DNA from: Hydrolagus affinis
Taxonomy: Eukaryota
Reading direction: 5' to 3'
Length of the DNA stretch: 64,000 bases
NCBI GenBank assembly: GCA_012026655.1
Contig: JAAILG010001242.1
Span: forward strand, 1-64,000
The position numbers and the translations under genes are program-made. Shown piece after piece: positions 35,735-53,976 of this stretch. The notes beneath the pieces were generated by a model, which saw only the letters and a program-made list of their open reading frames with translations, did not search any database and was not told the DNA's origin. Every line of letters begins with the position of its first letter. Position 1 is the stretch's first letter.

Positions 35735-36278
35735 ATGCCTCCTCCAGCGGTGGTCAAAGCAGCACCTTCACCACATCTTCCAATCCTAGCATGCATTCTA
35801 CCTCAGTAACTGACAGCACATCTATGCAAGTAGATAGCTGCACTCCAGAACAGGGGGTAAGTAGCCAAGGGGTAAGTGAATTACTGAACTATGAAAATCA
35901 GTTAAGTAATGCCCCACAGCTGCAGTCTACACCCAAAAGGAGAACAGTCCTCAACATCTCACCACCCCCCGAAGACTTGCTGGATGACAGCAGGATGTCT
36001 TGTCAGAATGAGGCAGGTGACTCTGAGCAAAGCAGTAATATCTGGATGGATGACTCTGGCTCCAACTTCAGCATCATGAGTTCCAGTTCTTACAATGACA
36101 ATACAACAGTGCCCCGAAAATCGCGGAAACGCTCACCCAAACAACGCCCTGGCTTTGTGCCCGAGGGTGACGAAGATACAAATATGGATGTATTTGATGC
36201 AGACAGTGCAAAAGGACCCCATTATGTACTTTCTCAACTCGGCTCAGAAGGCAAAAGCAGCTCAAAGGGAAGCAATGG
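35735..36278 (+). CDS. NFAT5: NFAT5 coding exon: N-terminal regulatory region with auxiliary export domain and NLS ([27 protein letters not shown]...[13 protein letters not shown])
   Basis: CAG acceptor; 544 nt; GG|GTTGGT donor gives the phase 2 required by the next exon; strong match to NFAT5. Confidence 0.95.
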
Positions 36279-38579
36279 GTTGGTATAGCTTCATTTTTTT
36301 AATTTCATGTAAACAGTTAAGCAAATTTCATCTCAGCTAAACACACAGAATGAGCATTTTCCTTTAAAGATTAAATCAGTGTAGCTTTTCTTGTTTTATG
36401 TCTTGCCTATTTTATTTTATTATTTATCTATTTATTTATGGGAAGCAATATGCTTTGTAATAAACTAGGCAAAATTTTGCAATATATTAGGAAGACTAAT
36501 ATGAGAAGGATTTTTCATTCATGATATAAACATTCTGTAGAAAGCCTGTCCTGTTTTTTTATATATATATATATTTTTAGGGGAAATAATGCACCCTAAA
36601 CTCCTGTCTTAAGTTTGTCTGTTGTGTAGAGTATTCCACAAATTATCTTTTTATCAGTTGTAAGCCAGAGACATTAACATTTCTGTTATGATAAACTTTT
36701 TCTTCCGCATATAAAATACCATTCTTAGGTCAAAGTTCTGTTTTTCTCAAGACTAAATTTTGAGAAAATAGCTTGCTTCTATACCGGACATAACAAAAAC
36801 AGAACTGCTGGAAATCCACAGCAGATCATTTAGCATCCAAAAGAGAAGTTTAAAGATAGGTTAAAGTTTCAAGCAAAGCTCTATCAAAACTGAAATAGTG
36901 GGCTGTAAAGTACTTATATTTGGAAGCTCAGATTTCCAGCATCCACTATTTTTGCTATTTATGCTACAGAACCATACTTTAGAGATAACATAAATTAGCA
37001 TGATTGTTGGCAGTACGGGAATTGTTTGTTTTTCCATTATCCACATGATTATTGGTGTTATTATCAGTGCCTTGGGACATCCTTCGGACATGAAAGGGGC
37101 TCTACACATGTAATTTTGTTGTTGTTGATTATCTGGATCTAGATAGTTTTCTTCAACTTGATGCTGCAAAAAATCCTTACAATTGATCATGTTGTATTCA
37201 GTTGTGCTTTTGAAAATAGTGGATTTGCTTCTGTCTTAAGAAGGGTGAATAATATACTCCATGTATTATACTTTCTCTAAACCTCAGATCATTAAAAAAA
37301 ATTATTTCCTACACTTACCAGTAACCCTTATTTGAGGGTTATTCTTGATAAAGTCTGGGAAATAATTGACAAAGGCAGAAATGAACAGCAGTTTCCATTG
37401 TGTGATGAAGCACATCCTTGTGAACCTAGTTGCTAACCACCAACATTTCAGAGTATTTGTTCACAGACTGATTGGAGGGATGACACTGATTTTTTTTAAC
37501 ATAGTCCGCTGCTTCAACTATGCTTGTTGAAAATGTTGTAGGAATGGTATCAATTAATATTTCAATTTGAACTGTAAATGGACCAACGATCATAACAGTC
37601 CTTAAAGCGAGAGAACATGGCATGAGTATACTATAATTACTTCTCTCTTGTGTTAACTTTCCCACTTTTGAAAATGACTGCTTAACTCCAGAAACTTGCT
37701 AATGCTTCATATTTTACTGTTACATCCTCTTGCCTTGCCAAAGATTATGTCTCATTTTTGACATGGTCAAGAAATTATCATCTATTCATTCTACCAGCTT
37801 TACCCACAAATCCAAGATGTCATTTTCATTGGATATATTCATTGGTTCACTATGACTTACAAAATCTTTGCAACAATCTAGCATTTGTTTACCTAATTTA
37901 CCCGAGTCAAAATCTAAAGGTAATGTCATTACTAATTGTAATAGCTTAATGGCTTTTGTGTTACATTACTTCCAGTGCTTTGGCAACAAACTCAATGGCT
38001 CTATCTGAGGCCACCTTGTGCTCATTGTTGTGTAAAGATTCTGTTGACAATTGTAAAGCTACTACTTAAGCTATCCTCCTTTGGCAAAACCCATTTTGGA
38101 TTTGGCAGCCGTGAGTGACTGCGCTTAGGAGCTTTGTCTTACTACAATATGGCTTCTTGCATTAACGACATTTTGTATGTTTCCTGTGTAACATACAGTG
38201 ACTGTGACTTAATTAAACTGCAGGAGCTTGTTTTTGTGTGCCATGATACCCACCTCCCCCCCCGCCTGCCCCATCACCACCACCACATGCGCATGTGCAC
38301 ACACACACATACTCACACACAGGGAGGAATAAATAAGTAAATGCCACCAAAATATTTTACATTACACAAACTAATGTGTTTCAGGAACATAATTCATCTA
38401 AATTTTCAGAGAATATTAATAAATCACTTAAACGTTTGCTCTTGTGATTTATATCATCTGCACATTAATATATGTAACATACTTTTCATACTTTTGTAAT
38501 TATTTACTGACCTGATTATATCTGCTAGATAACAAAACTCTTATGCTTAGCCACTCTGTTCTATTTTACTGCCAGCATA

Positions 38580-38807
38580 TAATAATTATCCTTGCATTTG
38601 ATATAGCACTTTATCATGTCTTCGAGACATCTCAAAGTGTTTCACAGAATAAACTGTAAAGTGCATTGGCTTTCCAGCAATCGACTAACAACTGGGTTCC
38701 GACTTAATGCGAGGTAAACAGAGGGTTGTGGAGTAAGGAAACTTGCCCAAAGTTTCGCCCTCCCAGGGAATCAAACATTTACGAGGCACGAAGTTACAGG
38801 ACTCCAC
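38580..38807 (-). mobile_element. Deu-type SINE, internally rearranged/deleted
   Basis: Tail complement at 38580-38670 and head complement GTGGAGTAAGGAAACTTGCCC...TACAGGACTCCAC at 38728-38807. Confidence 0.8.
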
Positions 38808-40242
38808 ATATATACTGTATAAAGCCATACTAGTTACAAATGTAAATGGTGTTGAATTCAAAATAATTATAGAAAACTCTGTCTTTGGGGGTGGAGGGAA
38901 GTAAGGTGGGTTTCTCTAGATCTGAACTGGCTCCAAGTTGACATGTTTGGCATGTACTTTCCTGAATTCGGTAAGCAGGAAGCATCTCTGCAGATATGTA
39001 CATTTATGGAATATCCAAGAATACATGGAGCTTTTTAGATACTCGTAAACATGGGTTATGTGTCAGACACCTGGCTTACCAAAAATAATTGTGCATATTA
39101 ATTTGTTTTCTGGGTATTTGGTGTTTAAAATGCTGCTGTAAATTTAAAGCAGTTTCAATCCAAGGTGTATTTATAGAAAACTTTATAAATGAAGATGTGT
39201 ATAAGGTTGGAAACTAGGCCATCTATCCCTCGAGTAGCAATAATACCTGTAAAAGATTTTCCGCTGGGAACTTGTATGTCAATACATAATAAATGTGAGA
39301 CCAGGTAGTATTTGTTTGTGAAAACAGTGACTATAAAGAAGCAAAACTGCAGCAGAGCTTCATTACGCGGTGTCAAAGAATGGTGGAATGCAGGTATGTG
39401 TCTAGGCTTTCCCACGTTGACACCATCTCAATCTCAGCCAAGGTTAAGAGGAGGCACTGAGGCAAGGTCAGGAACTCTTGAGAGGAGGAAGACGAGGAGG
39501 GTGAATACCCATGTACGTTCTTCTGAGTTTCCCACAAATTGAACCAAGGATGGTATTGGTTGGTAATAGCCAATGGCGTAAAATGATGTAGAGAGACTCA
39601 AAGCAGTGAGAGATAGAATTTTTTTTTTAATTCACTGTAAATTTTCATACACATTGGGTATAAACCTCACTGAATCCAAACAGTGTATTTCTCATGGACC
39701 AATTTGTAAATATATCTGCCTCCTCAAGAGACTTCTACTTGAGCATATCTGATGCCCTGGGCCAGACGTTTGAATTCCAGGGATGGGATACACTGATTCT
39801 TCAATCCCTACTGGTGTTTCTCTTTCCATGGTAATGCAATTAAAGTTAGTGGGTGTTTGGATGTGCAACCGACACAGGTTGTGCACAGGTTCCCAATGTG
39901 CCCATGTTACTATGCCTGTCAATGTTTTGTCCTTTTGTGTAGGTGTCTCCGTGAAGTTACATGTATAGAGTTGTGGAATGGCCCTTAATTTATCTTGTGG
40001 GCTTCCCTGCCATTGGTACTTTGTAACTGAGATCGACTGTTTAGAAAATGACTGTGTGTATTGACGTGGGTTTGGGAGATGATGGAATTAATGAGAGATA
40101 ATTCTTAAAAGTGCTAGTCACAGGATTTCTAACGAATTCTGCTTTGTACACCAGATTAAACACTAAAAGAAAGTGAAATCAAAAGTTGTATTATTAAAGC
40201 AATTTCATTGATAAATATCTTGTTTCTCTTAACGTTTCATAG

Positions 40243-40432
40243 ACCAGAAGAAAAACAGAAAGCAGTTTCAAAGAAGAATCCAGCGCTGAGTGGCCACTAT
40301 CCTGGTAAAAATGAAGGCAAAGAGTTGAAAGTACTGGTGCAGCCAGAGACTCAGCACAGAGCGCGATACTTGACTGAGGGCAGCCGTGGCTCCGTCAAGG
40401 ACCGGACACAGCAAGGCTTTCCAACAGTAAAG
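40243..40432 (+). CDS. NFAT5: NFAT5 coding exon, start of Rel homology domain ([37 protein letters not shown])
   Basis: TAG acceptor, AG|GTATTT donor, 190 nt; NFAT DNA-recognition loop RARYLTEG. Confidence 0.97.
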
Positions 40433-41122
40433 GTATTTTTTTTTACTTAAACTTTTAATGTTTGGCTTTAGGTTTCGAGAGCCTGCGTTAAGGTGGGACT
40501 CTCTTCAGAATCTACCTCCAGTAGCCAATTGTCCCAACAGGTGTTCACGATCTCCAGGTAATACTTTACAGCAGCTGTCACCCAAAGCCTCAGAGAGAGG
40601 ACCCTGCCATAAACTGATATGACATTAATAATAATATTACTATTACTAAGCACCCTAGCAGCAAATTTGGCTTCACGGTGGACACACCTATTTGCCAAGG
40701 GCCCTCACATAAAGACCTGAATTAAGCGATCGGTGATCAGTTAATCTGGTGTCTAGTATTGGACTTGTATCTTGAGAATATCAAGGTCATAAACTGTCTT
40801 GTAAAAGAACAAGCCTTTCAACTATGTGAAAGACATAGTCTGCCAGATAGCTGATGAGGAAATACGAACACTTTGACCTCAGGGTCATGGAGGAAATAGC
40901 TTAAAACAAAGCCTAAGATTTGCTGCTTCTGTTTAACTCTGTATTGTTGTAAGGAAACTATCCATTCTTAGGGGAACAAGTTAATGTTAAAATTGGGATT
41001 TTAAAACTTGAAAGTATTTGTGGTAAAGTGAGGATTTGTTTATTTGTTATGTTTGCTTATGAATTTTGTTGTGATCCCAACAAAGATTTTAGTTCACAAA
41101 CGTTTCTATTATTTTTTCATAG

Positions 41123-41313
41123 TTGGAAGGTCACAATGAGCCAGTGATATTACAAATTTTTGTTGGCAATGACTCTGGTCGTGTCAAACCCCATGGCTTT
41201 TATCAGGCCTGCAGAGTCACTGGGCGAAATACCACTCCTTGCAAGGAGGTAGATATTGAAGGAACAACTGTGATAGAGGTCAGCCTGGAGCCTGGGAATA
41301 ACATGACACTGGC
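41123..41313 (+). CDS. NFAT5: NFAT5 coding exon, RHD (LEGHNEPV...[19 protein letters not shown]...NNMTLA)
   Basis: TAG acceptor, GC|GTAAGT donor, 191 nt. Confidence 0.97.
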
Positions 41314-41642
41314 GTAAGTATCTGCTCATGCCGAGATCAACTGTCAAATGTATATGTATCATCTGGTATATTAATAGTACTCTTGAATCTTACCTGTATT
41401 GGGTTATCACATCTTAAATTGATTAATTCCCAGTTAATTGATTCTCCCATATGTCCTTAGAATGTCTCTGTCATTTTTTTCACCCTTTATTCCTTTTAAT
41501 ATATTGAATTTGGCTTCCTGGACAAGTGCAAAGTACACACACGATATAAAATCACAGTTGGCTATAGGCAATGGGTGTGTCAAAATTCCTATGTTGTCAA
41601 GTGTGTGCACACATTAAAGTGCAGTTCATTTAATTTTCCTAC

Positions 41643-41960
41643 AATAATAATAATCCTTGTATTTGATATAGCACTTTCAGGTCTTCTAGATGTCTCAAAG
41701 TGCTTCACAGAATATACTGTAAAGTTAATTGACTGTATACTTGTGAGCGAAATGCGGCAGCCAATTGCACACAGCAGTATCCCACAAACAGTCGTGGATT
41801 GAAATGACCAATTTTTAAAAAACATTTGGGGGGGGATTATTATATTAGGTGTGTGGAATAAGGAAACCCAATCACCCCAAGTAAAGAAATTTCCCCACAG
41901 TTTTGCTCTGCTGGAAATCAAACCCAAGTCTCTCGCTTGTGAAGCGAGTGCTCTAACACT
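41643..41960 (-). mobile_element. Near-full-length Deu-type SINE, head fused to an L2 fragment (41957-42025, + strand)
   Basis: Reverse complement of the SINE up to GCGAGTGCTCTAACACT, then CTGGAACTCCATCCCACAGTCCC...CCTCCTTCAAGAC as in the L2 copies. Confidence 0.88.
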
Positions 41961-42872
41961 CTGGAACTCCATCCCACAGTCCCTTCTCCTCGTTTCTTCC
42001 CTCGCCTCCTTCAAGACTCCCCTCTGTGTATTGGTGAAGCATATGAGAAAGGGATAGTGGTTCATTTGCATACAAACATTTGCAAAGTTAGCTTTGCTGA
42101 TAAAAATTAGATTTTTAAAAATAAAATGTTGAAGAAGTATATCTTAAGATTAGTGTGTCTCACCAGAAAGTTGGAAACAAATGAAATTTCCCTTGACATG
42201 ATTCCCTACGATTTAATACTTTTTTCTGAAAAAGCATCTCCTTTCTCTGAGCTTTCTCAGTGTGTCCCTGACAAGATCAATTTGGAAGTTACTGTCATGA
42301 AGCATTCTCACCATCCTACATCACTGCATATTTGGACATCAAAATTAATTATGTAATTTAGAAAGAAATTAAATAGGTGTTGTCTAGGTGAAAAGTGAAT
42401 GAAAAAGGGAAGAAATTGAGTTGCAAAAAAACAGTCCAGAAGTTTAGCCAACAACTGCGCCATTAGCATAGGTGAAACAACATGGTGCAGGTTGAAAAAT
42501 ATTGAAATGTGAATAAGCTGAATGAAGTCAATAGTCTGCAGTACAAACAGACAAATTATTTATAACACTGCCCAGTGAATCCCTAGACAGTCAAAGATAA
42601 CATTGGAATTTGTGTGATTTAGTGCTTGTGGGCACAATCATAATTTTGGATTTGATACACTGACCCAAAGACACCTGCCAAACGTACATTTTGTCAGCCA
42701 TAACTATACATTGTCCAACAACCGCACTGTAAATGGAGTGGTTATATTGTAAAGGCAGGGATACAACCCGACATCTGAAGTTTAGGCATCAAGTTTTCCA
42801 TTATTATTTGTAATAGTACAGTATAATGAATACCTGTTACAATTCCACGCCTGTTGCTTTCTCACCCTGTAG

Positions 42873-43045
42873 GGTTGACTGTGTGGGGATTTTAAAACTG
42901 AGAAATGCTGACGTTGAAGCACGAATAGGCATTGTGGGATCAAAGAAGAAAAGCACTCGTGCACGATTAGTTTTTCGAGTGAATATTGTCCGTGCCGATG
43001 GGTCTACTTTAACTTTGCAGATGCCCTCATCACCCATTCTGTGTA
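42873..43045 (+). CDS. NFAT5: NFAT5 coding exon, RHD ([19 protein letters not shown]...SPILC)
   Basis: TAG acceptor, A|GTAAGT donor, 173 nt. Confidence 0.97.
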
Positions 43046-43132
43046 GTAAGTGATATCTTTCATTAAAACAATTTGGATATAATTTATACCATTTTAATGT
43101 GCTAATGCACCATTTTGCTGTGGAGTGCTTAA

Positions 43133-43452
43133 CAATAATAATAATCCTTGCATTTGATATAGAGCTTTTCACATCTTGTAGACATCTCAAAGCACTTCAC
43201 TGAATATATGTAAAGTGAATTGACTGTTTATATTTGTGGGCGAATCGCGGCAGCCAAATGCACTCAGCAGTGTCCCACAAACAGTCGTGGATTGAAATGA
43301 CCGATTTTATTATTGTGTTTTTTGGGGAGGGATTATTATTAGGCGTGTGGAGTAAGGAAACTTGTCCAAGGTTTCGCCCTGACCTGCCTGGATTCAAACA
43401 CAGGTCTCACGCTTGTGAGGCGAGTGCTCTAACCACTGAGCTACAGGACTCC
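43133..43452 (-). mobile_element. Full-length tRNA-derived Deu-type SINE
   Basis: Complete reverse complement from the (AAT)n tail to ...CTCTAACCACTGAGCTACAGGACTCC. Confidence 0.92.
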
Positions 43453-45479
43453 TTAGTCCATTCTCATTTAAGCAATTAAGACCAAACATTCTATCTATAT
43501 GTTTACCTCTTAGCATCACACAAAAGTAGCAACTTGAATTAGCAGTGATTAGAAAATTCAAATGGTACAACATTATCTGTTAAATGTTGACTAGACATTA
43601 ATTGAACCACTGCATTATACATGGGCCAATAACCATATCTTACATTCATGTGAAGTTTAAACAATCGAATTGGTTCTTGCATGCATTGCAGCGCAAAAAA
43701 ATGTGTTAAGTTGTTTCCATTTATTACTTACAACTGGTTTGTTTAAAGACCAGCAATGGAAATTACACTTGCTTAGGTAGTTCTTTACAGTGCCAACTAT
43801 TCATGTGCTTGGTATAATTTTGACAATAAATGCTTTATTACTGGAAAAGCAAAGTAACATCTTACCTTTGATAGATCTGAGTACCGATCTCGAACAGTGT
43901 TAAATTGCATTTCCAGTCTTTTTCAAAATTGGTAGCTATATTAAGAATAGGTTCAAATGAAAGTTAGGAGTGCTTTAAAAATTTTGATTTGTTTACACCT
44001 ATTCTATTCATCTGGAAGAAAAGCCTCAAACATGAGAGTTTTACTGGTTGTTTTTGTATTCAATTATTACTCTTACTAGTATTTCTACTATTTGTGGCAA
44101 TTCACGTCTTGCATTTAGGAGGGGGAAATGGCACAATAAGTTATATCAATCCATCTATTTTGTAATTAATTTGATCTATTCTGCGTTGACATTTACACAC
44201 ATGTACACCATTGGCCTTGTTAAACTATATGTACCCAGTCTTCCTCACTTCCCCTTGTTTACACATTGACTCATAATGACCTATTTACACTTATTCACAC
44301 AGAGGTATTCCTGTTAACTGCAGAAAAACATGTAGTTGGCCAGACTACTCGTATAAAAGCACAAATAAAGCTCACAAGCCTTGTTTGTACAAAACACGTT
44401 TCAGCCATTTCCTACCTCGGCATGAGTCTTCGGGAGAAAACGGGCAGCAATTTGGGGAAAAGGAATAAAATGTAATCTTTTCATTGGCAGTTAATGATAT
44501 AAATGAGAATTAGCTGTAATGAATCTGCAATTCCCTCTCGACACAAGTTTATACTGAAATTGGGAGTTGTTCACGTGGACAATGTTGCTGCAATGATGTG
44601 ATGTTTGATTGTAATGGTCCTCCGGATGTGAAAGGCGCTCTATAAATGTAATTTTGCTGTTGTTAGATTTGGTTCGTGTGTCTGAAGAAAGATTATAATA
44701 TTAGTTTAGTCCAACAGCTGCTGAGAATAGAAATGTAATTAATCTCTTACAGAATTAATTGAGCAAACACAGAATGAGTTTTGATATTTATCAAGGAAAC
44801 CTGGTGATAAAAAAAAGTGATAAAACTAGAAGTAGTTACATTTAATATCAATTGCCAATAGGAGAAATTATTTTGTAAAAAGATTTTTAGTCCGACAGAG
44901 TATTTTACCCTTAAACACTGAGTATTCTTTTAAAAAGCCAGTTTCACATTGCTCTGGGCACTGCTTGTTTGGCCTCTCCCTACAACATGGTTGGAATTTG
45001 GAGATTAGCAAAATAGAAAATGACACTCTGTGTCTTCACTGTGCTCTGTTGATTTGAGTGATTACCACTTTGGTACATTTGGTACATTCTTGACCTCTTA
45101 CAGAGCAGTTTCCTCAACATCGATGACTTGATTTAAACACTAATCATTTTGACTTGTGTATTTTGATTTCTTGGTGACTGTAAACAAAGTTAAGAAAGAA
45201 TAACCAAAAGTCTATTAATACTAAAGCGATCACCGGATAAATCTCTTAACACTATGATGATCTCCCATGATGCCCATATGATATATATATATATTGCTTA
45301 AAAAACATATGGAATTCCATATGATTTTTAACATTCTTGTAGTGTTTTGTTATTCTAGTTCATTTTTTCACAAGTACGTATGAAAATACAGGTGATAGAT
45401 ACCATTATATGCAATGCACAATTCCAATTAGCCATATATGTGGTTAATAAAGTAAATTTGTTTTACATTGAAATTGTAG

Positions 45480-45614
45480 CTCAGCCGGCGGGAGTACCAG
45501 AGATCTTGAAGAAAAGCCTACACACCTGCACAGTGACCGGGGGAGAAGATTTATTTCTGATAGGAAAGAACTTTCTAAAAGGCACAAAAGTTATTTTTCA
45601 AGAGAACGGTTCGG
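45480..45614 (+). CDS. NFAT5: NFAT5 coding exon, IPT/RHD-C ([15 protein letters not shown]...[12 protein letters not shown])
   Basis: TAG acceptor, G|GTGAGT donor, 135 nt. Confidence 0.96.
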
Positions 45615-46683
45615 GTGAGTAATTGGTTTTATCCGAGTCTAAAACAAGAAAGCCAAACAGTAGGAAGCAATCTCTGCAGATTCTTCGCTCAGTGTTGCTT
45701 CATTGGGGAATTCTTTACAGTGTCTTTCCCAGATAATCAATTTTGTTCTGTCTCAGGATGCTTCCTTGCTTTTTCCTCTCCCATCTGAACCACACCTACA
45801 TACACAATAATACTTCCATACACTTCAAGTGTCTGCATTTTGCAAGGATAAACTGTCACAGAAAAAATACTGCAAAGTAAAATGCGCTGCAAAGTCTTGA
45901 GTCTTGAGTTGCAATGATTGAGTATGAGCTTATTTACTATCTTGATACTTCAATAATATATGTGCAGCCATAAATATGCAAGTCAAAATAACTATTTTTA
46001 ATGAAACACCTGGTGAGTTAAGTCTATAACTAATCACTTATTGTGACGTTTGTAGGCCATTGTTATTTCTTGATGTTGCGTGGTTTATTTTTCCATGATC
46101 CACAACACTATCCGGTCCCACAGATGTGTGATATGATGGATAATGTAATAAGTCTTTTAAGGATGGAGCAGTTCCTGTCCATCTGTGTGATATTTTCAGT
46201 GTTCACACCCAACATATATTTATGCTGTTTCTTTAGGAAAGATCCAGATGTTGATCAATGCTGGATATGCCTTAGTTGCCTCTTTTCCTCTCTATTAAGT
46301 ACAATGGTTGTAATTTCTGAAATTGTCAGATTCAAGTGCTGCAAAACACAATGGAATCAGGACTTTTGCTCTTTTTAAACGTACAGGGCATTTAGTATTC
46401 TGCTAACTATTTTCAAAAATAATGCATTTGTTATGCAGTAACGTCCTCTAAGCTGTAACATATCATGTACTCTATTTCTTGGTAGAGAAATTCTGTTTTG
46501 CATCCAAAGAACAGATTAGTTATAGAAAACTGTACACTTTTCTTTTAAAAAATCCTTCTGTGATAAAATATCTGTATTCATATTAGCAATCACTAAATGT
46601 GCATAACAGAATCAAAGTTTTTTTTCAATAAATGTCACTGGCAGAGCCATGATAAATGTGTTCAATCTTATAATCCTCATCAG

Positions 46684-46739
46684 ATGAGACCTGTTCTTGG
46701 AAATCAGAAGCCGAAATCGACATGGAGCTCTTTCATCAA
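46684..46739 (+). CDS. NFAT5: NFAT5 coding exon (DETCSWKSEAEIDMELFHQ)
   Basis: Read by hand (below ORF-track cutoff); CAG acceptor, GTGAGT donor, 56 nt, phase 1-0. Confidence 0.95.
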
Positions 46740-47227
46740 GTGAGTTTAAAGGATCTCATTTTCAAGGTTTTATTTAAACGGAGGAGTGAATTAGAAGGGA
46801 AAGCCATCTTTATGTATTCACTTCAAGTAAATCTTTTTATGTTCCCTCACCAGTAATGAACATAGACTGGATTTTATACATGTATATAATTATATATGTT
46901 ATATACATGTACATACCTGTACACATATGATGTAACTTGCACAATTCAGAACACTAATAGAACATCATTTAAAGAGATTATGTTCGGTGCACTGGCTCTG
47001 CTGAATAAGGAACTTCTTTTGATTATTTCATATTATTAGCAGAGATTAGAAAAAAAGGGGAAACTGTCTGGAATAGTCACTATGAGATCTGTAAACCCAA
47101 ATGATTGCTTGTCTGGCCGCAGTTTGTGTGTGGGCTAGTGATACCAGGGAAGATCAAGAAAATGAACTTGAAAAATATATGCAAAAAGTCTTTGTTGCTC
47201 TTCATAATGTTTCTTTTGTTTTTGTAG

Positions 47228-47360
47228 AATCACCTTATTGTTAAAGTTCCGCCATATCATAATCAACAAATAACATCACCAGTTTCAGTTGGAATATATG
47301 TAGTGACTAATGCTGGAAGATCGCATGAGGTGCAGCCTTTTACCTTCACACCAGATCCAA
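47228..47360 (+). CDS. NFAT5: NFAT5 coding exon ([44 protein letters not shown])
   Basis: Read by hand; TAG acceptor, A|GTGAGT donor, 133 nt. Confidence 0.96.
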
Positions 47361-47721
47361 GTGAGTTCATTGCTATATTCCTTTTTGTATTCTTTATCTG
47401 GTTAAATCTTTCAACTCTGAAAAACAAATGTGTACAGATGATGCTCAAGACTATCCTTTAGGCTGTGTCAAGAGTTTGTTTCTGTTTCTGATACTGGAGG
47501 AACGCTGTTATAACTGCTTCTCCCTCATAATATAATAATAAAATTAGATATTATATATATAATTATTATTATAAGTTAAGTCAGTCATTTTTCTTGAGGT
47601 TTTGCTTATTATAATGTGTGTGGCCTCTGAAATATTGGACTGCTACCACTGTATCTGATAAGAACTGAGCAAACAAAAATTTGTGTTTTACATTTATGGT
47701 ATATGTTCTACTGTGCTTCAG

Positions 47722-47793
47722 AAAACTCATCAGATGTCATTGTGAAGAAAGAAGGAGTTGCCCAACCATGTTCCTTTGAGGAAGTTATCAAAG
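47722..47793 (+). CDS. NFAT5: NFAT5 coding exon (KNSSDVIVKKEGVAQPCSFEEVIK)
   Basis: CAG acceptor, AG|GTAAAA donor, 72 nt, phase 1-1; matches recalled human VKKE...PCSFEEAMK. Confidence 0.9.
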
Positions 47794-49372
47794 GTAAAAG
47801 TCATACTTCCCTATTTTTTTTAAATGCATCCAAAGAAAAATAGCCTGCTGGCAGGTTCAGGGGTTTAAATTGCTTTTTAAGTAGCGTACGTATTGCTGAA
47901 CTTGAGTGTCCTGTCGAATGCAACGCCAAAAAGTGGGGTCGAGGGGCTCAGTGGGAAAGAAGAGAGAAATTTTATACGGTTTCAACATTGAGCTGTAATA
48001 TAGCCCCAGCAGCTAGCCATAGAGGTACATAACGGGTACAATTCTCCACCTATCCAGAATGCATTCCCTGGGAGGCCAAAGAAGAATTATCTATAGTATA
48101 TACACACACACTTTCACACAAAAAATCCTAAATAGAGTGTGGCCATATTTCAACGTACTTTGTTTAGAACTGAATTTGGTTAGAAAATAGTTGGAATATG
48201 GACCTGGTTCACTGTGCATGCAATATTGCCATTCAATGAACGAACCTTGAAAACAACTGCATTATAATGGAGCTCAACATTTAACTCATGTTTTCCGTCT
48301 GGGAGAGGGATCAGATTATCAAGTCATGAAGGGCTTGTCCAAGTTCTAGTCAGTCAGTGCACGAGAGCATTAATGTTGCAGGATATGCATGTAAATGGTG
48401 TAATTACAGCTCCTGATGTTTAAGGAAGTCAATCGAATTCTAAGAAGTACGTGAAGGTCACGCTTTATGCACTGTTATATTGTGTGATGTGCACCCATTT
48501 GTAAAATGCTCCAAAGACCTAGATCAAATCTTCACTATCGTTTTGCTGGTCCTTGTTTTGCAGCCGTAACACTTTCATTCCTGTATACTGATTACTATTT
48601 TATGATGTCTAGCACAGTAAGGTTTTGGAAACACTGTTTTCTTTGTACCTCCATGGAACAAATGAATCCTGTATAAGTCCACTGATCTAATGTGAGCAGG
48701 ATCAGCCGGAGAAGGTCAGACCAGTTACCCTGGCTGCTGGGAGACTGTTCAGAGCTGCATGCACACGTGCCATATATGTTGACATATGCACACACACAAA
48801 AAAAAATCACTTCAGCTGTTGATTACTATCTAAAGAAATACTTCCTGTTGTTAATCTTAAATTTGCCCTTCACAAAAGCTGAACCTTGTGTCCTCTAGTC
48901 CTATTGACTTGGCGTATCTGGAAGTATCAATCAAGGTTTATTTTCTCTATCCTGTTTACAAATGTTTATTTTAAGATGGCTACATTATAAATTTTAATCA
49001 AGCACTGAAGAATGATTATTTTGAAATGATTTATTTATACTGTAATAATTAGCTTCACTGGCAAGCTGGTGGAAGGAATGTGTTAAAAAGTATCCAAACT
49101 AGATTGAGAATATGTTGTCCCAGCTACTCTAGCCAGAAAGACAGTTGTTGGTTTGGTGCTATGGGTAACAGTTTGTACATTCAGAGAATGCAGATGAAAT
49201 TAAAATAATTTGGTGTCAATTAATTACACTGTACTTACATAGGTATATCTCTTTATAAAAGTATTTTTTGATATCCTATCTGAAATGGCGTTTATAGAAT
49301 CCGATCGTCGGTTTTATTTTTATTTGTGAAACGGCTGAGAGGTGTGACTGGATTTTTGCTTCTTTATCACAG

Positions 49373-49524
49373 CTGCAGCAATGAAAGCCACAAGCCACCT
49401 GGAGAAAGCGAATCTTCTTCCCAGTGCCTTGATATCACCCCTTCTGCCACCTGCTTTGGTTAAGAATGAGGAATTGAATCCAATGGAAATAACATCAAAT
49501 CAGTCAACATCTGCAGTCTTTAAG
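49373..49524 (+). CDS. NFAT5: NFAT5 coding exon (AAAMKATSHLEKANLLPSALISPLL...SAVFK)
   Basis: CAG acceptor (alternative in-frame CAG at 49376-49378), AG|GTATTA donor, 152 nt. Confidence 0.92.
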
Positions 49525-49679
49525 GTATTAAGTTATTTTTTGTCAAGAATCTGGAGCACACTTTTGTTTAGGACTTTTAATAGCGTCAGAAAAAGAAACC
49601 TACTTGCATTGAGCAGTTAGCATTTTTTTTCCAAAATAAATGTAGGAAATTCAGCTCAAAGCAAATATAACTTTGAAAT

Positions 49680-49832
49680 ATTATTATGGTTTTTTTTTTA
49701 ATGTGATTTTTTTTGTGATTTCGTCCACAAAATATACGGTCAACCAGTTCACAGTATATTCTGTGAAGTGCTTTGAGACGCCTTGAATACATGATAAGAT
49801 ACTATATCAAATGTAATGATTATTATTATATT
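49680..49832 (+). mobile_element. Deu-type SINE 3' fragment just upstream of the large exon
   Basis: CCACAAAATATACGGTCAA...TGTGAAGTGCTTTGAGACG...TATATCAAATGTAATGATTATT. Confidence 0.75.
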
Positions 49833-49903
49833 ATGAAAGTGCAGGGTAGTTCAATTGACTACGTGTAATTTTTTTGTTTAAATTAGTCTTTTTTCTGTTA
49901 AAG

Positions 49904-52442
49904 AGTCAAGAAATGGGACTGGGACAGCCATCTCTGGAAACCACTGCGAATATTTCAGGAGGGCCTCCTTTCTCTGCATCCATTTCCCATCAAGGAGGGG
50001 ACGTTGAACAACACCAGCAAATTCAACCAAATGCCTATCCAAGCACAGAATCTCTGGCCACTGTCCAGAAACAACAGGACATTTCTCAGACTTGTGCATT
50101 TCAATCCACAAATTCTACCAGTCAGCTTCAGAACAATGAAGCTTTACTTCAGCAACCAGCGCAGTTTCACAAAACTGGCATTTTGTTGGATTCAAACGAA
50201 GTGCAACCGAGAGACATTTTGCAGTCTGGTGAAACTATGGTGTCATTGTCTCGGTTGTCTCAGCCTGGCCTGCAGCAGCATCAACAGCAGCAACAACAAC
50301 AACAACAACAACAGCAGCAACAACAACACCAGTCACAGGCACTGCAGGAGCATTCTTCTAACATATTTCAAACCAGCAGTAATGTTTCACAGTTGCAAAA
50401 TGCAATGCAATCTCTGCAACCGGGAAACTTTCAAACCAACAGTAACAGTGGGAGGAGTGATAACGTTAGTCTTGTTCAACAGGCTTTGGAGGCTGCTCAG
50501 CAGCAATTGTCCGCAGTTTTATTTACTGGCCCACCCGACACCATGCAACAGTCTGTGGAACAGGTGCAAGAGCAAATTAATGCGGAGATGTTCCAACAAG
50601 TAAATAATATGCAGAGTAACATGGCTCAAGGTTTATTCTCGACTTCAGACAGCTCATCCCTCTCCAGATCTGACAATGTTCTCTCTGGGCATGAAAGTTC
50701 ACTGTCAAATCAGCAACATCAAGTGTTAGAATCTTCCCCCGGTATGGTGATGGCAATGCAACAGAACATTTGCGCCAGGACTGGGCAGCTACAATCGGAT
50801 TTGTACCAGTCGTCAAAAGTAATAAATGTCCAAGGGTCTTTGAATGGAGGCCTTCAACAATCTGATGTTTTTCAGCAACCTTCTCATGTCATGTCTGGCC
50901 TGCAGGCCACTGATGCAAACCAACATCAGATGTCGCACGGCGGACTGTTTTCACCGACTGCAAACGTCGGAGGAAATGAGAACATGGGGAATTCTCAGCA
51001 ACAAACTGCTTCCTCAAGTCTCTTTCAGTCTTCAAACCCCATGGTCTCCGTTGAAGAAGCGGCAGCCCAGTCAAAGCAAAAACAAAACAATGTGTTCCAG
51101 TCTATCGTACAAATGAAACATGGCGGAGACAATCAACCTCAAGTCAATTTGTTTTCGACGACAAATGGAATCATGCACGGAATTAAAGCTGGTGGACCAT
51201 CACAGCAAACTGGACTTTTTCAGCAGAGTGGAGAGATGATGTCCATTCAACAAGGAAACTTCTTGCAGCAGTCTGCGCACTCTGCTCACCCGTCATCTGA
51301 ATTGTTCCATCCCCAAAACCCCATTAATCAAGCTCAGAATACCCAAGAACCACAGTCTGGCCTTTTTCATTGCCAGAACACTGTCCTCCAGCATCAGAAC
51401 CCTGCCGCTTCTCAGGAGCAAGTACAGTCAGCGATGTTTCATTCTCAAAACTCAATGGCAGTCCTTCAGAACTCATCACATCCCCAAGATCAGCAGCAAG
51501 CCAATCTTTTCCTCCCTCAAAACTCCTTGTCTTCGCTTCAGAATAGTAACATGTCACAAGAAAAGCAACAGATCAGCTATTATTCTCCGCAAGGTTCAAT
51601 GCCTACACTCCAGAGCTCAGCATCTCCTGAGCAACAATCTGTGAATGTCTTTCAGCCCCAGTCGCAATTGTCTTGCATACAAAACACCATGATTTCTCAA
51701 GAGCAGCAGCAGCAGAGTCATTTTCAACACCAGGTCACTTTATCGTCGTCACAGGCTAACCCTTCTCCCCCAAACCAGCAAGGATCACTTTTCCAGACCC
51801 AACACTCACTAGTTACACTTCAGAACAGCGCACTGTCCCAAGACCAACAACAGAATGTTCTGTTTAATTCCCAGAACACCATTTCCCCGATAAACAACAG
51901 CATGACTTCCCAGGAGCAACAACACAACATCCTTTTCAACTCTCAGAATGGCATGGCTTCAATGAATACAAACATGGCTTCCCAAGAGCAGCAGAACCAA
52001 ACTCTTTTCCACACTCAGGCCAATATGGTGTCGGTCAATCAGGAGCAACAGTCGTCCATGCAGTTCCAAAATCAGGCCACGGTTTCTTCACTCGCCAACA
52101 GTGGGACGTCTCAAGCAGACCAGCAGCAGTCAGCGGTTTTTCACAACCAACCCCAAATGCAGTTAGTTCAAAATTCAGGTGGCTCTGAAGACCAACAGGT
52201 CACATTGTTCATTTCCCAGGCGTCAATGTCTGCGTTGCAGAGCAATATGAATCAGCAGGAGCTTCAGCAATCCAACATTTATAATTCTCAAAATAACATG
52301 CCTGTTCTTCAGGCCAACACTGCGGCACCAGGTCAGCAGCAAAACACACTGTTTCACCCACAAAGTGCTATGAATCAGCTGCAGAACCCACCGCCACCAT
52401 CTCAACAGCCGCCTGACTTATTCCTCTTTGGAATTCAAAATG
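49904..52442 (+). CDS. NFAT5: NFAT5 large coding exon: glutamine-rich transactivation / prion-like domain (846 codons)
   Basis: AAG acceptor after a T-rich tract, G|GTAAGC donor, 2539 nt open frame; motifs such as GDNQPQVNLFS and FLFGIQN match NFAT5. Confidence 0.96.
50282..50326 (+). repeat. Coding CAA/CAG repeat, 15 consecutive Gln
   Basis: CAA CAG CAG (CAA)7 CAG CAG (CAA)3 between two His codons. Confidence 0.95.
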
Positions 52443-53713
52443 GTAAGCAATAATAAAGGACATAGAATTTGTTGATATGCTTAATGGTGTCGGGTTGGTG
52501 CTTCTGAACAGTACCCATTGAATCACATATTTGGTACGAAAGCCAGCTGTAAAGGATCAGGCTGAAATTAATTAGTGTACTCTCAACACAGTTTCCAATT
52601 AGATACAACTGCACAGCAAACAACTAGTTTCGCAGAATCAATAAAGTCACAAGCATCGGTGGTAACGTGGGAGTTGGAAATGTCAATGAGCAGAGTAAGA
52701 AGTGCTCGTCTAAAGTCTGAATTGAGGGCCGTATTTAAAATAAGCTACGCAATTTTGAGTACCTCAATGCGATGTGTATGTCTGTACATAAAAGAGGCAG
52801 TAGAAGAAGTTTAAAAAAGAATATTTATAGCACTTGGATTGTTAATTGAAGAAAATATACTGAGAGTGGGCAGCTTTTTAAATTGTCAACAACACCAGAT
52901 AACTCAAAACAGGTTTACATTACAGTAAACAGTATCCTGGTTTACAATCATCGTTTGATTCAATACAGAATCAGGTTAGACTGGGATAATTGTGAATTAT
53001 GGTCTAGTAAAAAAAACAGCACTGCTAGTTGAAGTTAAAATGTTTTGCAGTATATTCCTGACCTTTCAGCAACTATTTTTGTTATCTCTGGTTTGTTATC
53101 TCTGCTTTGCGAGAAGCATAGTTAAAATGATCTGTGACCCTTTAATTCATGCAACTGATAATAAGTGGATCCGCTTTAAATGGAGCAACAAAACTAAGAG
53201 AATCTAATTTATTTTGGGGTCACATACTCATGTTTATATTCAAATTAACCGTTTTTTGTAATCAAAGTATCCCTTTCCCAGTAAACGATATTGTTGGAAA
53301 AAAAAGCCAGGATTACAGACATTTCCTTCTCAGTGGGAAAAAATTTAATTTCGTCAAAATCATCACTCTTTTTAAAAGGAATTCTTGCTGGATTCTAATG
53401 GGAAACTCACCCCTGGAGTCCAGTGTGGAATAGAAAGGTTTAGCCAAATTGTGGCCTTGGTTTGTTGAAGCAGACCACACAAGTTATGGCTTTAATGATT
53501 TCTTCTTCAGATAGTAGAAGATTATGTTGGATGTAATTTATACAAGGATGAACTGACTGCCAAAAGCAATAAATATGAATATTTGTTAAATATCTGGTTT
53601 CTTTTAGATCTCAATCAGCAATTTCTATATTGAGACATATACCATACTGTTGGAAATGTATTAAAAACTAACCTTAATTACCAAAAAAATCTTCAAATTC
53701 TTATTTCATACAG

Positions 53714-53976
53714 ATTGTGGACGATTAATGAGTTTGAACGATGTATCGCGGTCATGTTCTTCTGGACAATCTACCTTATCTGATCAACTGCTAGCAATAA
53801 GCCAGTCTGGCCAGGCACAGAATGAAGGTCAAGCAGTCTCTTCGCTCCTTCCACAGCAATTGACTGACACGAGGCAGCTATCATCCAACATTACCGCAGA
53901 ACAGAACGTGGAAAAGATTGACGACATCCTTGTCACTTTACAGAACCAAGGAAATAACATCAACAGGTCATTTTAA
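53714..53976 (+). CDS. NFAT5: NFAT5 last coding exon (DCGRLMSLNDV...EKIDDILVTLQNQGNNINRSF*)
   Basis: CAG acceptor, phase 1; TAA at 53974-53976; matches the recalled NFAT5 C-terminus LQNQGNNLTGSF. Confidence 0.95.

Follow-up and report, generated by a model that had tools for sequence, protein, structure and literature searches.

A 24-residue repeat array in the glutamine-rich tail of NFAT5 from a chimaera-like fish

The tail of human NFAT5 condenses and activates transcription as ionic strength rises, and the purified domain condenses over a narrow NaCl window, salt alone being sufficient (PMC11838016). In mini-NFAT5, exchange of seven histidines for lysine weakened condensation and activity and exchange for phenylalanine strengthened both, while Gln-to-Ala substitution abolished both and Ser-to-Ala substitution had no effect (PMC11838016). 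The human domain recruits BRD4 and Mediator, and labile cross-beta contacts have been proposed for it (PMC11838016). Activation in response to tonicity was observed for human NFAT5 as well as in chimeras carrying a fish, frog, bird or fly tail, and the chimera with the Drosophila tail retained salt-induced puncta (PMC11838016, PMC10602047). Within the human tail, the activation domain regulated by tonicity is AD2 (aa 1039-1245/1249), which also serves as the sensor of mini-NFAT5 (PMC10602047, PMC3655004). How ionic strength acts on the domain is named as an open question by the sensor's authors, who treat this Gln/Ser-rich, charge-poor, histidine-tuned prion-like domain as defined by composition (PMC11838016); in contrast, the orthologous tail described here, from Hydrolagus affinis, has repeat units.

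Even aromatic spacing is likewise documented for NFAT5: the 30 aromatics of the human protein were more evenly placed than in 1000 of 1000 random sequences, its IDR was called ‘highly periodic' and used as a showcase example, and the activity of an NFAT5 GAL4 reporter, 4.2-9.2 with the aromatics in place, was 0.19-0.41 after their removal (PMC11321997, source data). Aromatic periodicity, the need of aromatics for activity and salt-triggered condensation are already known (PMC11321997, PMC11838016). An earlier note, made from the letters of the present DNA, had left open whether the periodicity had been described; the aromatic spacing has been, whereas the full unit was not found. Removal of the aromatics is likewise among the checks that the note had proposed. 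PMC11321997 measures aromatic spacing alone and reports no motif in pooled periodic blocks; its accessible part showed no repeat unit, unit orthology, acid phasing or Phe-His pairing. The available text of PMC11838016 contains none of the words periodic, aromatic and spacing, its ‘repeat' concerning other things. No test of the acids was found in the available text of PMC11838016 or of its preprint PMC10602047, from which ‘acidic' is absent, and a literature search confined largely to the text of non-subscription papers turned up no account of the unit, of the orthology between units or of the newt expansion. The unit code, the frozen unit number, the phased acids with the Phe-His pairs and the newt expansion appear to be new.

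The prion-like domains of FUS, hnRNPA1 and TDP-43 resemble the array in placing aromatic stickers evenly in polar spacers (PMC11321997). The NFAT5 array differs from them in its sparse stickers (one per 24 aa), nearly all of them Phe, in having 8 Gly and no Arg, and in a spacer with a conserved order of its own. GLFG nucleoporins carry repeated Leu-Phe sites, with the Phe-Gly dipeptide, in cohesive, uncharged spacers rich in Gln, Asn and Ser; the array shares the Leu-Phe sites and such spacers, but none of its 16 units has the Phe-Gly dipeptide (Gly at +1, 0/16), and each adds an acid and aliphatic positions.

The NFAT5 gene and its large exon

The window is the whole stretch of 64,000 nucleotides analysed, and all features below lie on its + strand. 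The NFAT5 protein of Callorhinchus milii (P0001) is 93% identical to the region, and tblastn placed it in 11 collinear exon blocks at 35791-53973 (75-99% identity per block), giving an NFAT5 (TonEBP) coding region at 35791..53976 with the stop at 53976. The Rel-homology DNA-binding and dimerisation domains precede a long Gln-rich tail in the same gene, their part corresponding to the blocks from about 40244 to 47792, and homologues carry PF00554 and PF16179. Among the matches listed (the best 120 of 197), every named homologue is NFAT5 by name or by one source's name. Given the 93% identity and the collinear blocks, the gene, which the earlier note had already named as NFAT5, is identified by sequence comparison as the NFAT5 of a chimaera-like fish. 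A search of the species' own genome returned only the exon with the array (10 of 10 candidates scored), consistent with a single locus. The possibility of an assembly artefact was ruled out by the 93% identity and same register in Callorhinchus and by a single contig of a close relative that spans the array.

The whole glutamine-rich tail, including the array, lies in a single coding exon of 2539 nt (49904..52442) within an open frame at 49859-52453 (864 codons). Evidence for splicing comes from relatives: the 5' joint was seen as GT..AG in one contig of relative X3, from a run presumed to be RNA, and the 3' joint as GT..AG in four RNA reads of relative X11; no splice joint within the array was listed for any of the relatives. 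The intron preceding the exon, 379 nt long, carries at 49745-49835 a short interspersed repeat of very high copy number, its summed contig depth exceeding 1e6 in relative X10.

Upstream of the array, the exon (49904..51277) holds 17 irregularly spaced aromatic sites and a separate CAA/CAG polyglutamine tract (50272..50332). The sites share a weak common context (z 5.6; spacing CV 0.51), with a hydrophobic residue at +6 in 11 of 17 and Gln at +3 in 1 of 17, and the 461 aa that precede the array in this frame showed no autocorrelation period (best lag reached by 1579 of 2000 shuffles). These sites are possibly an older, decayed layer. After the last unit, the exon closes with the motif L-F-L-F-G-I-Q-N (52418..52442), which alignment showed to be near-invariant across jawed vertebrates, with a trace in lamprey; it was the sole stretch predicted with a pLDDT above 70 and is a candidate binding motif in AD3.

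Sixteen units of about 24 residues

The array comprises 16 imperfect units of about 24 aa at approximately 51278..52396, with the consensus S-Q-(E/D)-Q-Q-Q-x-x-L-F-(H/Q/N)-x-Q-N-x-(M/L/I/V)-x-x-L-Q-N-S. The anchor codons are at 51305, 51365, 51437, 51509, 51581, 51650, 51722 and 51791 for units 1-8 and at 51863, 51935, 52007, 52064, 52139, 52208, 52280 and 52352 for units 9-16, giving successive gaps of 20, 24, 24, 24, 23, 24, 23, 24, 24, 24, 19, 25, 23, 24 and 24 aa, of which 13 of 15 fall within 23-25. Fifteen units contain one aromatic, and unit 5 has Tyr-Tyr. The earlier note had described about 16 units with one aromatic anchor each; those it listed were recovered letter for letter in the open frame, the count and the single anchor holding apart from unit 5. 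Its limits, 51288..52442, required adjustment: the codon frame starts one base earlier, at 51287, and the end, although a true exon end, takes in the terminal motif, which is not a unit. In unit 1, a 9-nt in-frame indel at 51341 relative to X3, X5 and Callorhinchus P0001 leaves 20 aa here instead of 23.

Autocorrelation scored with BLOSUM62 was strongest at lag 24 (z 11.7), a value that none of 2000 composition shuffles reached, and showed harmonics at 47/48 and 71, bearing out the period predicted in the note; the non-aromatic residues retained the signal at lag 24 (z 9.6). When aromatics were held fixed and all other residues shuffled, the columns around the anchors agreed with z 33.7, and those more than two residues from an anchor with z 28.5, indicating a repeat unit beyond evenly spread stickers alone. 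The most regular columns are Gln at +3 and Met/Leu/Ile/Val at +6 (each 16/16), followed by Gln at -5 (13/16), Glu/Asp at -7 (12/16) and Gln at +10 (12/16). Mean identity between units is 32%, and the two halves of the array align with each other (E 2.3e-9, 46% identity). With a significant period and a consensus extending over more than one residue type, the array is a tandem repeat; Tandem Repeats Finder did not detect it because the units are too worn, and no Pfam match above cut-off was obtained within it.

The composition of the 386-aa stretch (90 Gln, 58 Ser, 44 Asn, 16 Asp/Glu, 1 Lys and no Arg) agrees with the near absence of basic residues pointed out earlier and is polar-rich and charge-depleted, as in periodic-block IDRs. 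The standard deviation of the aromatic gaps was smaller than in all 10000 random placements, both for the array and for the whole exon; with at least four aromatics spaced more evenly than chance, the array qualifies as a periodic block as defined in PMC11321997. The lack of a Pfam match and the low confidence of the AlphaFold2 model (mean pLDDT 47) are compatible with intrinsic disorder, short of proving it.

Conservation, distribution and origin of the units

The number of units is nearly frozen from sharks, which retain urea, to mammals. In a first homologue set of sharks, coelacanth and tetrapods (the best 120 of 197, of which 115 were parsed and 5 were not), 112 of 115 proteins had 16 anchors, one had 15 and the two others were newts; since more than half of the set are birds, the 112 proteins do not represent 112 independent cases. 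The count of 16 held for every one of the 10 cartilaginous fishes listed and for coelacanth, caecilians, frog, reptiles, birds and 5 of the 6 mammals shown, the protein with 15 (P0101, a Bos mutus prediction) being without unit 9 and its polyGln, which may be a prediction gap. A ray-finned fish set (the best 120 of 375, with 114 parsed by alignment-based count and 6 unparsed) gave 14 anchors in 59 proteins, 15 in 40 and 13 in 11 (14-15 in 99 of 114), and 8, 11, 12 and 17 in four others. By presumed habitat and clade, 18 of the 19 marine spiny-rayed fishes and 8 of the 9 freshwater ones had 14 anchors, a count also seen in euryhaline species.

Individual units can be followed between lineages, the best-matching window unit standing at the same position for 15 of 16 units in a shark, 13 of 16 in the coelacanth and 10-12 of 16 in five tetrapods. 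The register is unusually legible in the chimaera, as the note had remarked: its self-consistency reached z 33.7, against z values of 29-32 for a further three cartilaginous fishes, of 13-19 for nine 16-anchor proteins of coelacanth and tetrapods and of 5-10 for four ray-finned fish proteins. Spacing CV is 0.06-0.08 in cartilaginous fishes versus 0.12-0.26 in tetrapods. Lamprey has a recurrent hydrophobic-Phe-Gln context (z 9.3) with irregular spacing and Gln at +3 in 0 of 14; the column test gave no array signal in two hagfish proteins, one mussel protein and three of four distant relatives, and the fourth (P0157) gave a weak one (z 5.2) with irregular spacing. From this distribution, the 24-aa array was likely complete in the jawed-vertebrate ancestor, before the split of cartilaginous and bony fishes, and has been best kept in the former. 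That ancestor lived more than 400 million years ago. The coelacanth (P0066) and tetrapods have a hot spot of polyGln inserts between units 8 and 9, where the gap measures 81 aa in the coelacanth and 18-42 in mammals; no inserts were seen there in chimaeras and sharks, and the hot spot coincides with the inferred end of AD2.

Conservation is unevenly distributed within the unit. Anchors are fully kept while spacers shorten or acquire polyGln, and, taken as a class, the hydrophobic residues at -1, 0, +6 and +9 show 82-100% conservation. Of the 16 acids here, 14 precede an anchor by 5-9 residues, and so do 11 of 14 acids each in alligator, duck, pangolin, bat and shrew, where a fraction of about 0.22 would be expected (p near 1e-5 or lower). 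Among the 17 proteins tested, only the expanded newt protein departs from this phasing. Six Phe-His pairs (units 1, 2, 3, 11, 13 and 16; 51305..52357) are kept in 109, 106, 110, 112, 112 and 110, respectively, of 112 sixteen-anchor homologues, and His at +1 is 94-96% conserved versus 25-47% for other His. Gln at +3, in contrast, is no better kept than Gln elsewhere (67% versus mostly 82-100%, in 14 lobe-finned proteins). Motif columns were 77% identical versus 71% for other columns in 9 elasmobranchs, and 66% versus 47% in lobe-finned vertebrates. The result for Gln at +3 and the narrow margin in elasmobranchs speak against a strict code. We infer from these comparisons that selection keeps anchors, acids and Phe-His pairs while spacers drift, the chimaera retaining the old register best.

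The note had also proposed that the domain arose by duplication of a ~72-nt module within the exon. DNA identity peaks at lag 72 (z 9.2 versus codon shuffles), as expected; however, 59 of 1000 synonymous shuffles, which keep the protein, reached the same value, so that the 72-nt signal mostly reflects the protein repeat. Adjacent units resemble each other more than randomly paired ones do (p 0.004), and the codon family of aligned serines agrees in 104 of 119 cases (reached by 8 of 5000 shuffles), while identical codons between units (396 of 887) gave a marginal result (105 of 2000 shuffles). With adjacency and serine codons in its favour and the overall silent-site and lag-72 tests marginal, an old intra-exon duplication is the likely origin, short of proof at the level of DNA.

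A direct precedent for duplication in NFAT5 is found in newts, where copy number has changed: 33 anchors in Pleurodeles (P0117), 31 in Lissotriton (P0287) and 30 in P0114, the three differing among themselves. The insert, at units 7-8, is a young 11-aa tandem module of Gln, Asp and hydrophobic-Phe with one acid per hydrophobic-Phe site (35 acids, 33 anchors). The 24-aa array itself suggests that old tandem duplication can yield a showcase case of evenly spaced stickers.

Readings of the array in salt sensing

The array overlaps the region implicated in condensation under ionic stress, as the note had stated. Human residue numbers (PMC10602047, PMC3655004) placed on the bat (1533 aa) and shrew (1532 aa) homologues suggest that two upstream anchors and units 1-8 form the counterpart of AD2 (51218..51830, limits approximate); the last units map to AD3. 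Residues 1039-1245 of the bat, shrew and cattle homologues contain seven His, of which three occupy position +1 in units 1-3. They match by number, and may match by position, the seven mutated in mini-NFAT5.

We lean towards the reading that the 16-module array in the prion-like tail, a product of old intra-exon duplication, works as a salt-gated multivalent sticker chain. Each unit would supply a single Leu-Phe(-His) sticker, a single acid placed 5-9 residues ahead of the anchor, a pair of aliphatic helpers (+6, +9) and a Gln run and, with almost no basic residues, the chain would be weakly and evenly negative. At resting ionic strength the acids would hold the chain apart and dispersed; as ionic strength rises, ions would screen the acids, hydrophobic contacts would strengthen and the freed stickers would let the chain associate with itself and with coactivators. 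Against screening stands the small net charge, about -0.02 to -0.04 per residue in the tested arrays (1-5 basic residues each). Furthermore, pure charge screening does not predict the His-to-Lys outcome (PMC11838016): the exchange lowers net negative charge yet weakened condensation, so the strength of the stickers counts independently of net charge. Sensing does not require the array, which is one way of achieving it, given that the fly tail responds and that no such array was found in seven tails, five of invertebrate-type or distant proteins and two of hagfish (the fly tail being judged from distant relatives).

The array might instead be a duplication relic whose function depends on composition only (many Gln, few charges, evenly spread aromatics), the order within the unit being unneeded. 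Chimaera proteins evolve slowly, and a relic would leave its clearest trace in a slow lineage; the register does decay from chimaeras to amniotes and teleosts, and the identity of the array to its orthologues is just 0-10 points above that of the upstream exon part. In the human protein, all serines are dispensable and the fly tail is still salt-responsive (PMC11838016, PMC10602047), and even spacing alone alters the activity of other factors (PMC11321997). Composition alone, however, would leave unexplained the acids in phase with anchors in amniotes, the excess conservation of His at +1 and of the motif columns in lobe-finned vertebrates, and the survival of anchors where spacers are deleted, and we give the relic account a real but limited chance. 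That each unit docks as a short linear motif, or as a transient amphipathic helix, on the surface of a coactivator such as Mediator or BRD4, which would make the array a multivalent activation domain and condensation secondary, would suit the placement of units on AD2 and AD3, the conserved hydrophobic class and the recruitment of both coactivators by the human domain (PMC11838016); we consider it unlikely, as salt alone acts on the purified domain (PMC11838016), periodic blocks rarely overlap minimal activation domains (PMC11321997), and AlphaFold2 gave no confident secondary structure. A regular solenoid or ordered cross-beta stack, for which the sharp 24-aa register, the Gln/Asn-rich columns and the labile cross-beta contacts proposed for the human domain (PMC11838016) would speak, is very improbable: AlphaFold2 returned a mean pLDDT of 47 and a pTM of 0.19 from a 40-row alignment, shallow enough to miss a fold, and the spacers between tetrapod anchors accommodate losses of 5-10 residues as well as long polyGln insertions, so that the array shows neither a regular predicted fold nor intolerance of indels. 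Labile cross-beta contacts may nevertheless occur.

The suggestion in the note that unit number or spacing tunes the osmosensor set point can be extended to an evolutionary dial for each lineage's salt threshold. Consistent with such a dial are the 30, 31 and 33 anchors of newts against mostly 13-15, with one 17, in ray-finned fishes, the rise in spacing CV from cartilaginous fishes to tetrapods, and a marine-freshwater anchor difference (p 0.02 uncorrected). The last was rejected as clade confounding, counts following clade, and the constancy of 16 anchors from cartilaginous fishes through mammals and of 14 in spiny-rayed fishes of either habitat makes the dial decidedly improbable. Unit number is thus not supported as a general set-point dial, because the count is nearly frozen and follows clade; unit spacing or number may have a local tuning role, since spacing drifts in bony vertebrates and newts have doubled their anchors.

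Returning to the sticker chain, a more specific version, which we put forward tentatively, is that the sensor has a readable unit code of one acid and one Leu-Phe(-His) sticker per 24 residues; with the same reserve, this code would have been multiplied to 16 copies when jawed vertebrates arose and would have evolved anew as the 11-residue newt module. If true, the pairing of acid to sticker would set salt gating, synthetic units could rebuild that gating, and newts would have a shifted or steeper salt response. The consensus reduces a 450-residue ‘disordered' domain to a few columns (the acid, Phe, His at +1, the +6/+9 aliphatics and Gln) open to simultaneous mutation in every unit, and there are two natural experiments, one in the regular array of the chimaera and one in the doubled array of newts.

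Several other repeats were encountered among the homologues. The sturgeon protein P0132 contains, at about aa 280-490, a near-perfect 11-aa Gln-rich repeat; its lag-11 signal (z 29) was considered as a parallel to the newt module and set aside, this repeat being separate, aromatic-free and upstream of the array. P0123 has its last units and tail present twice, perhaps an assembly effect. The distant Rel-domain proteins P0184, P0200, P0204, P0208 and P0247 have strongly periodic C-terminal tails, with periods of 12, 21, 26, 9 and 17, respectively (z 12-23).
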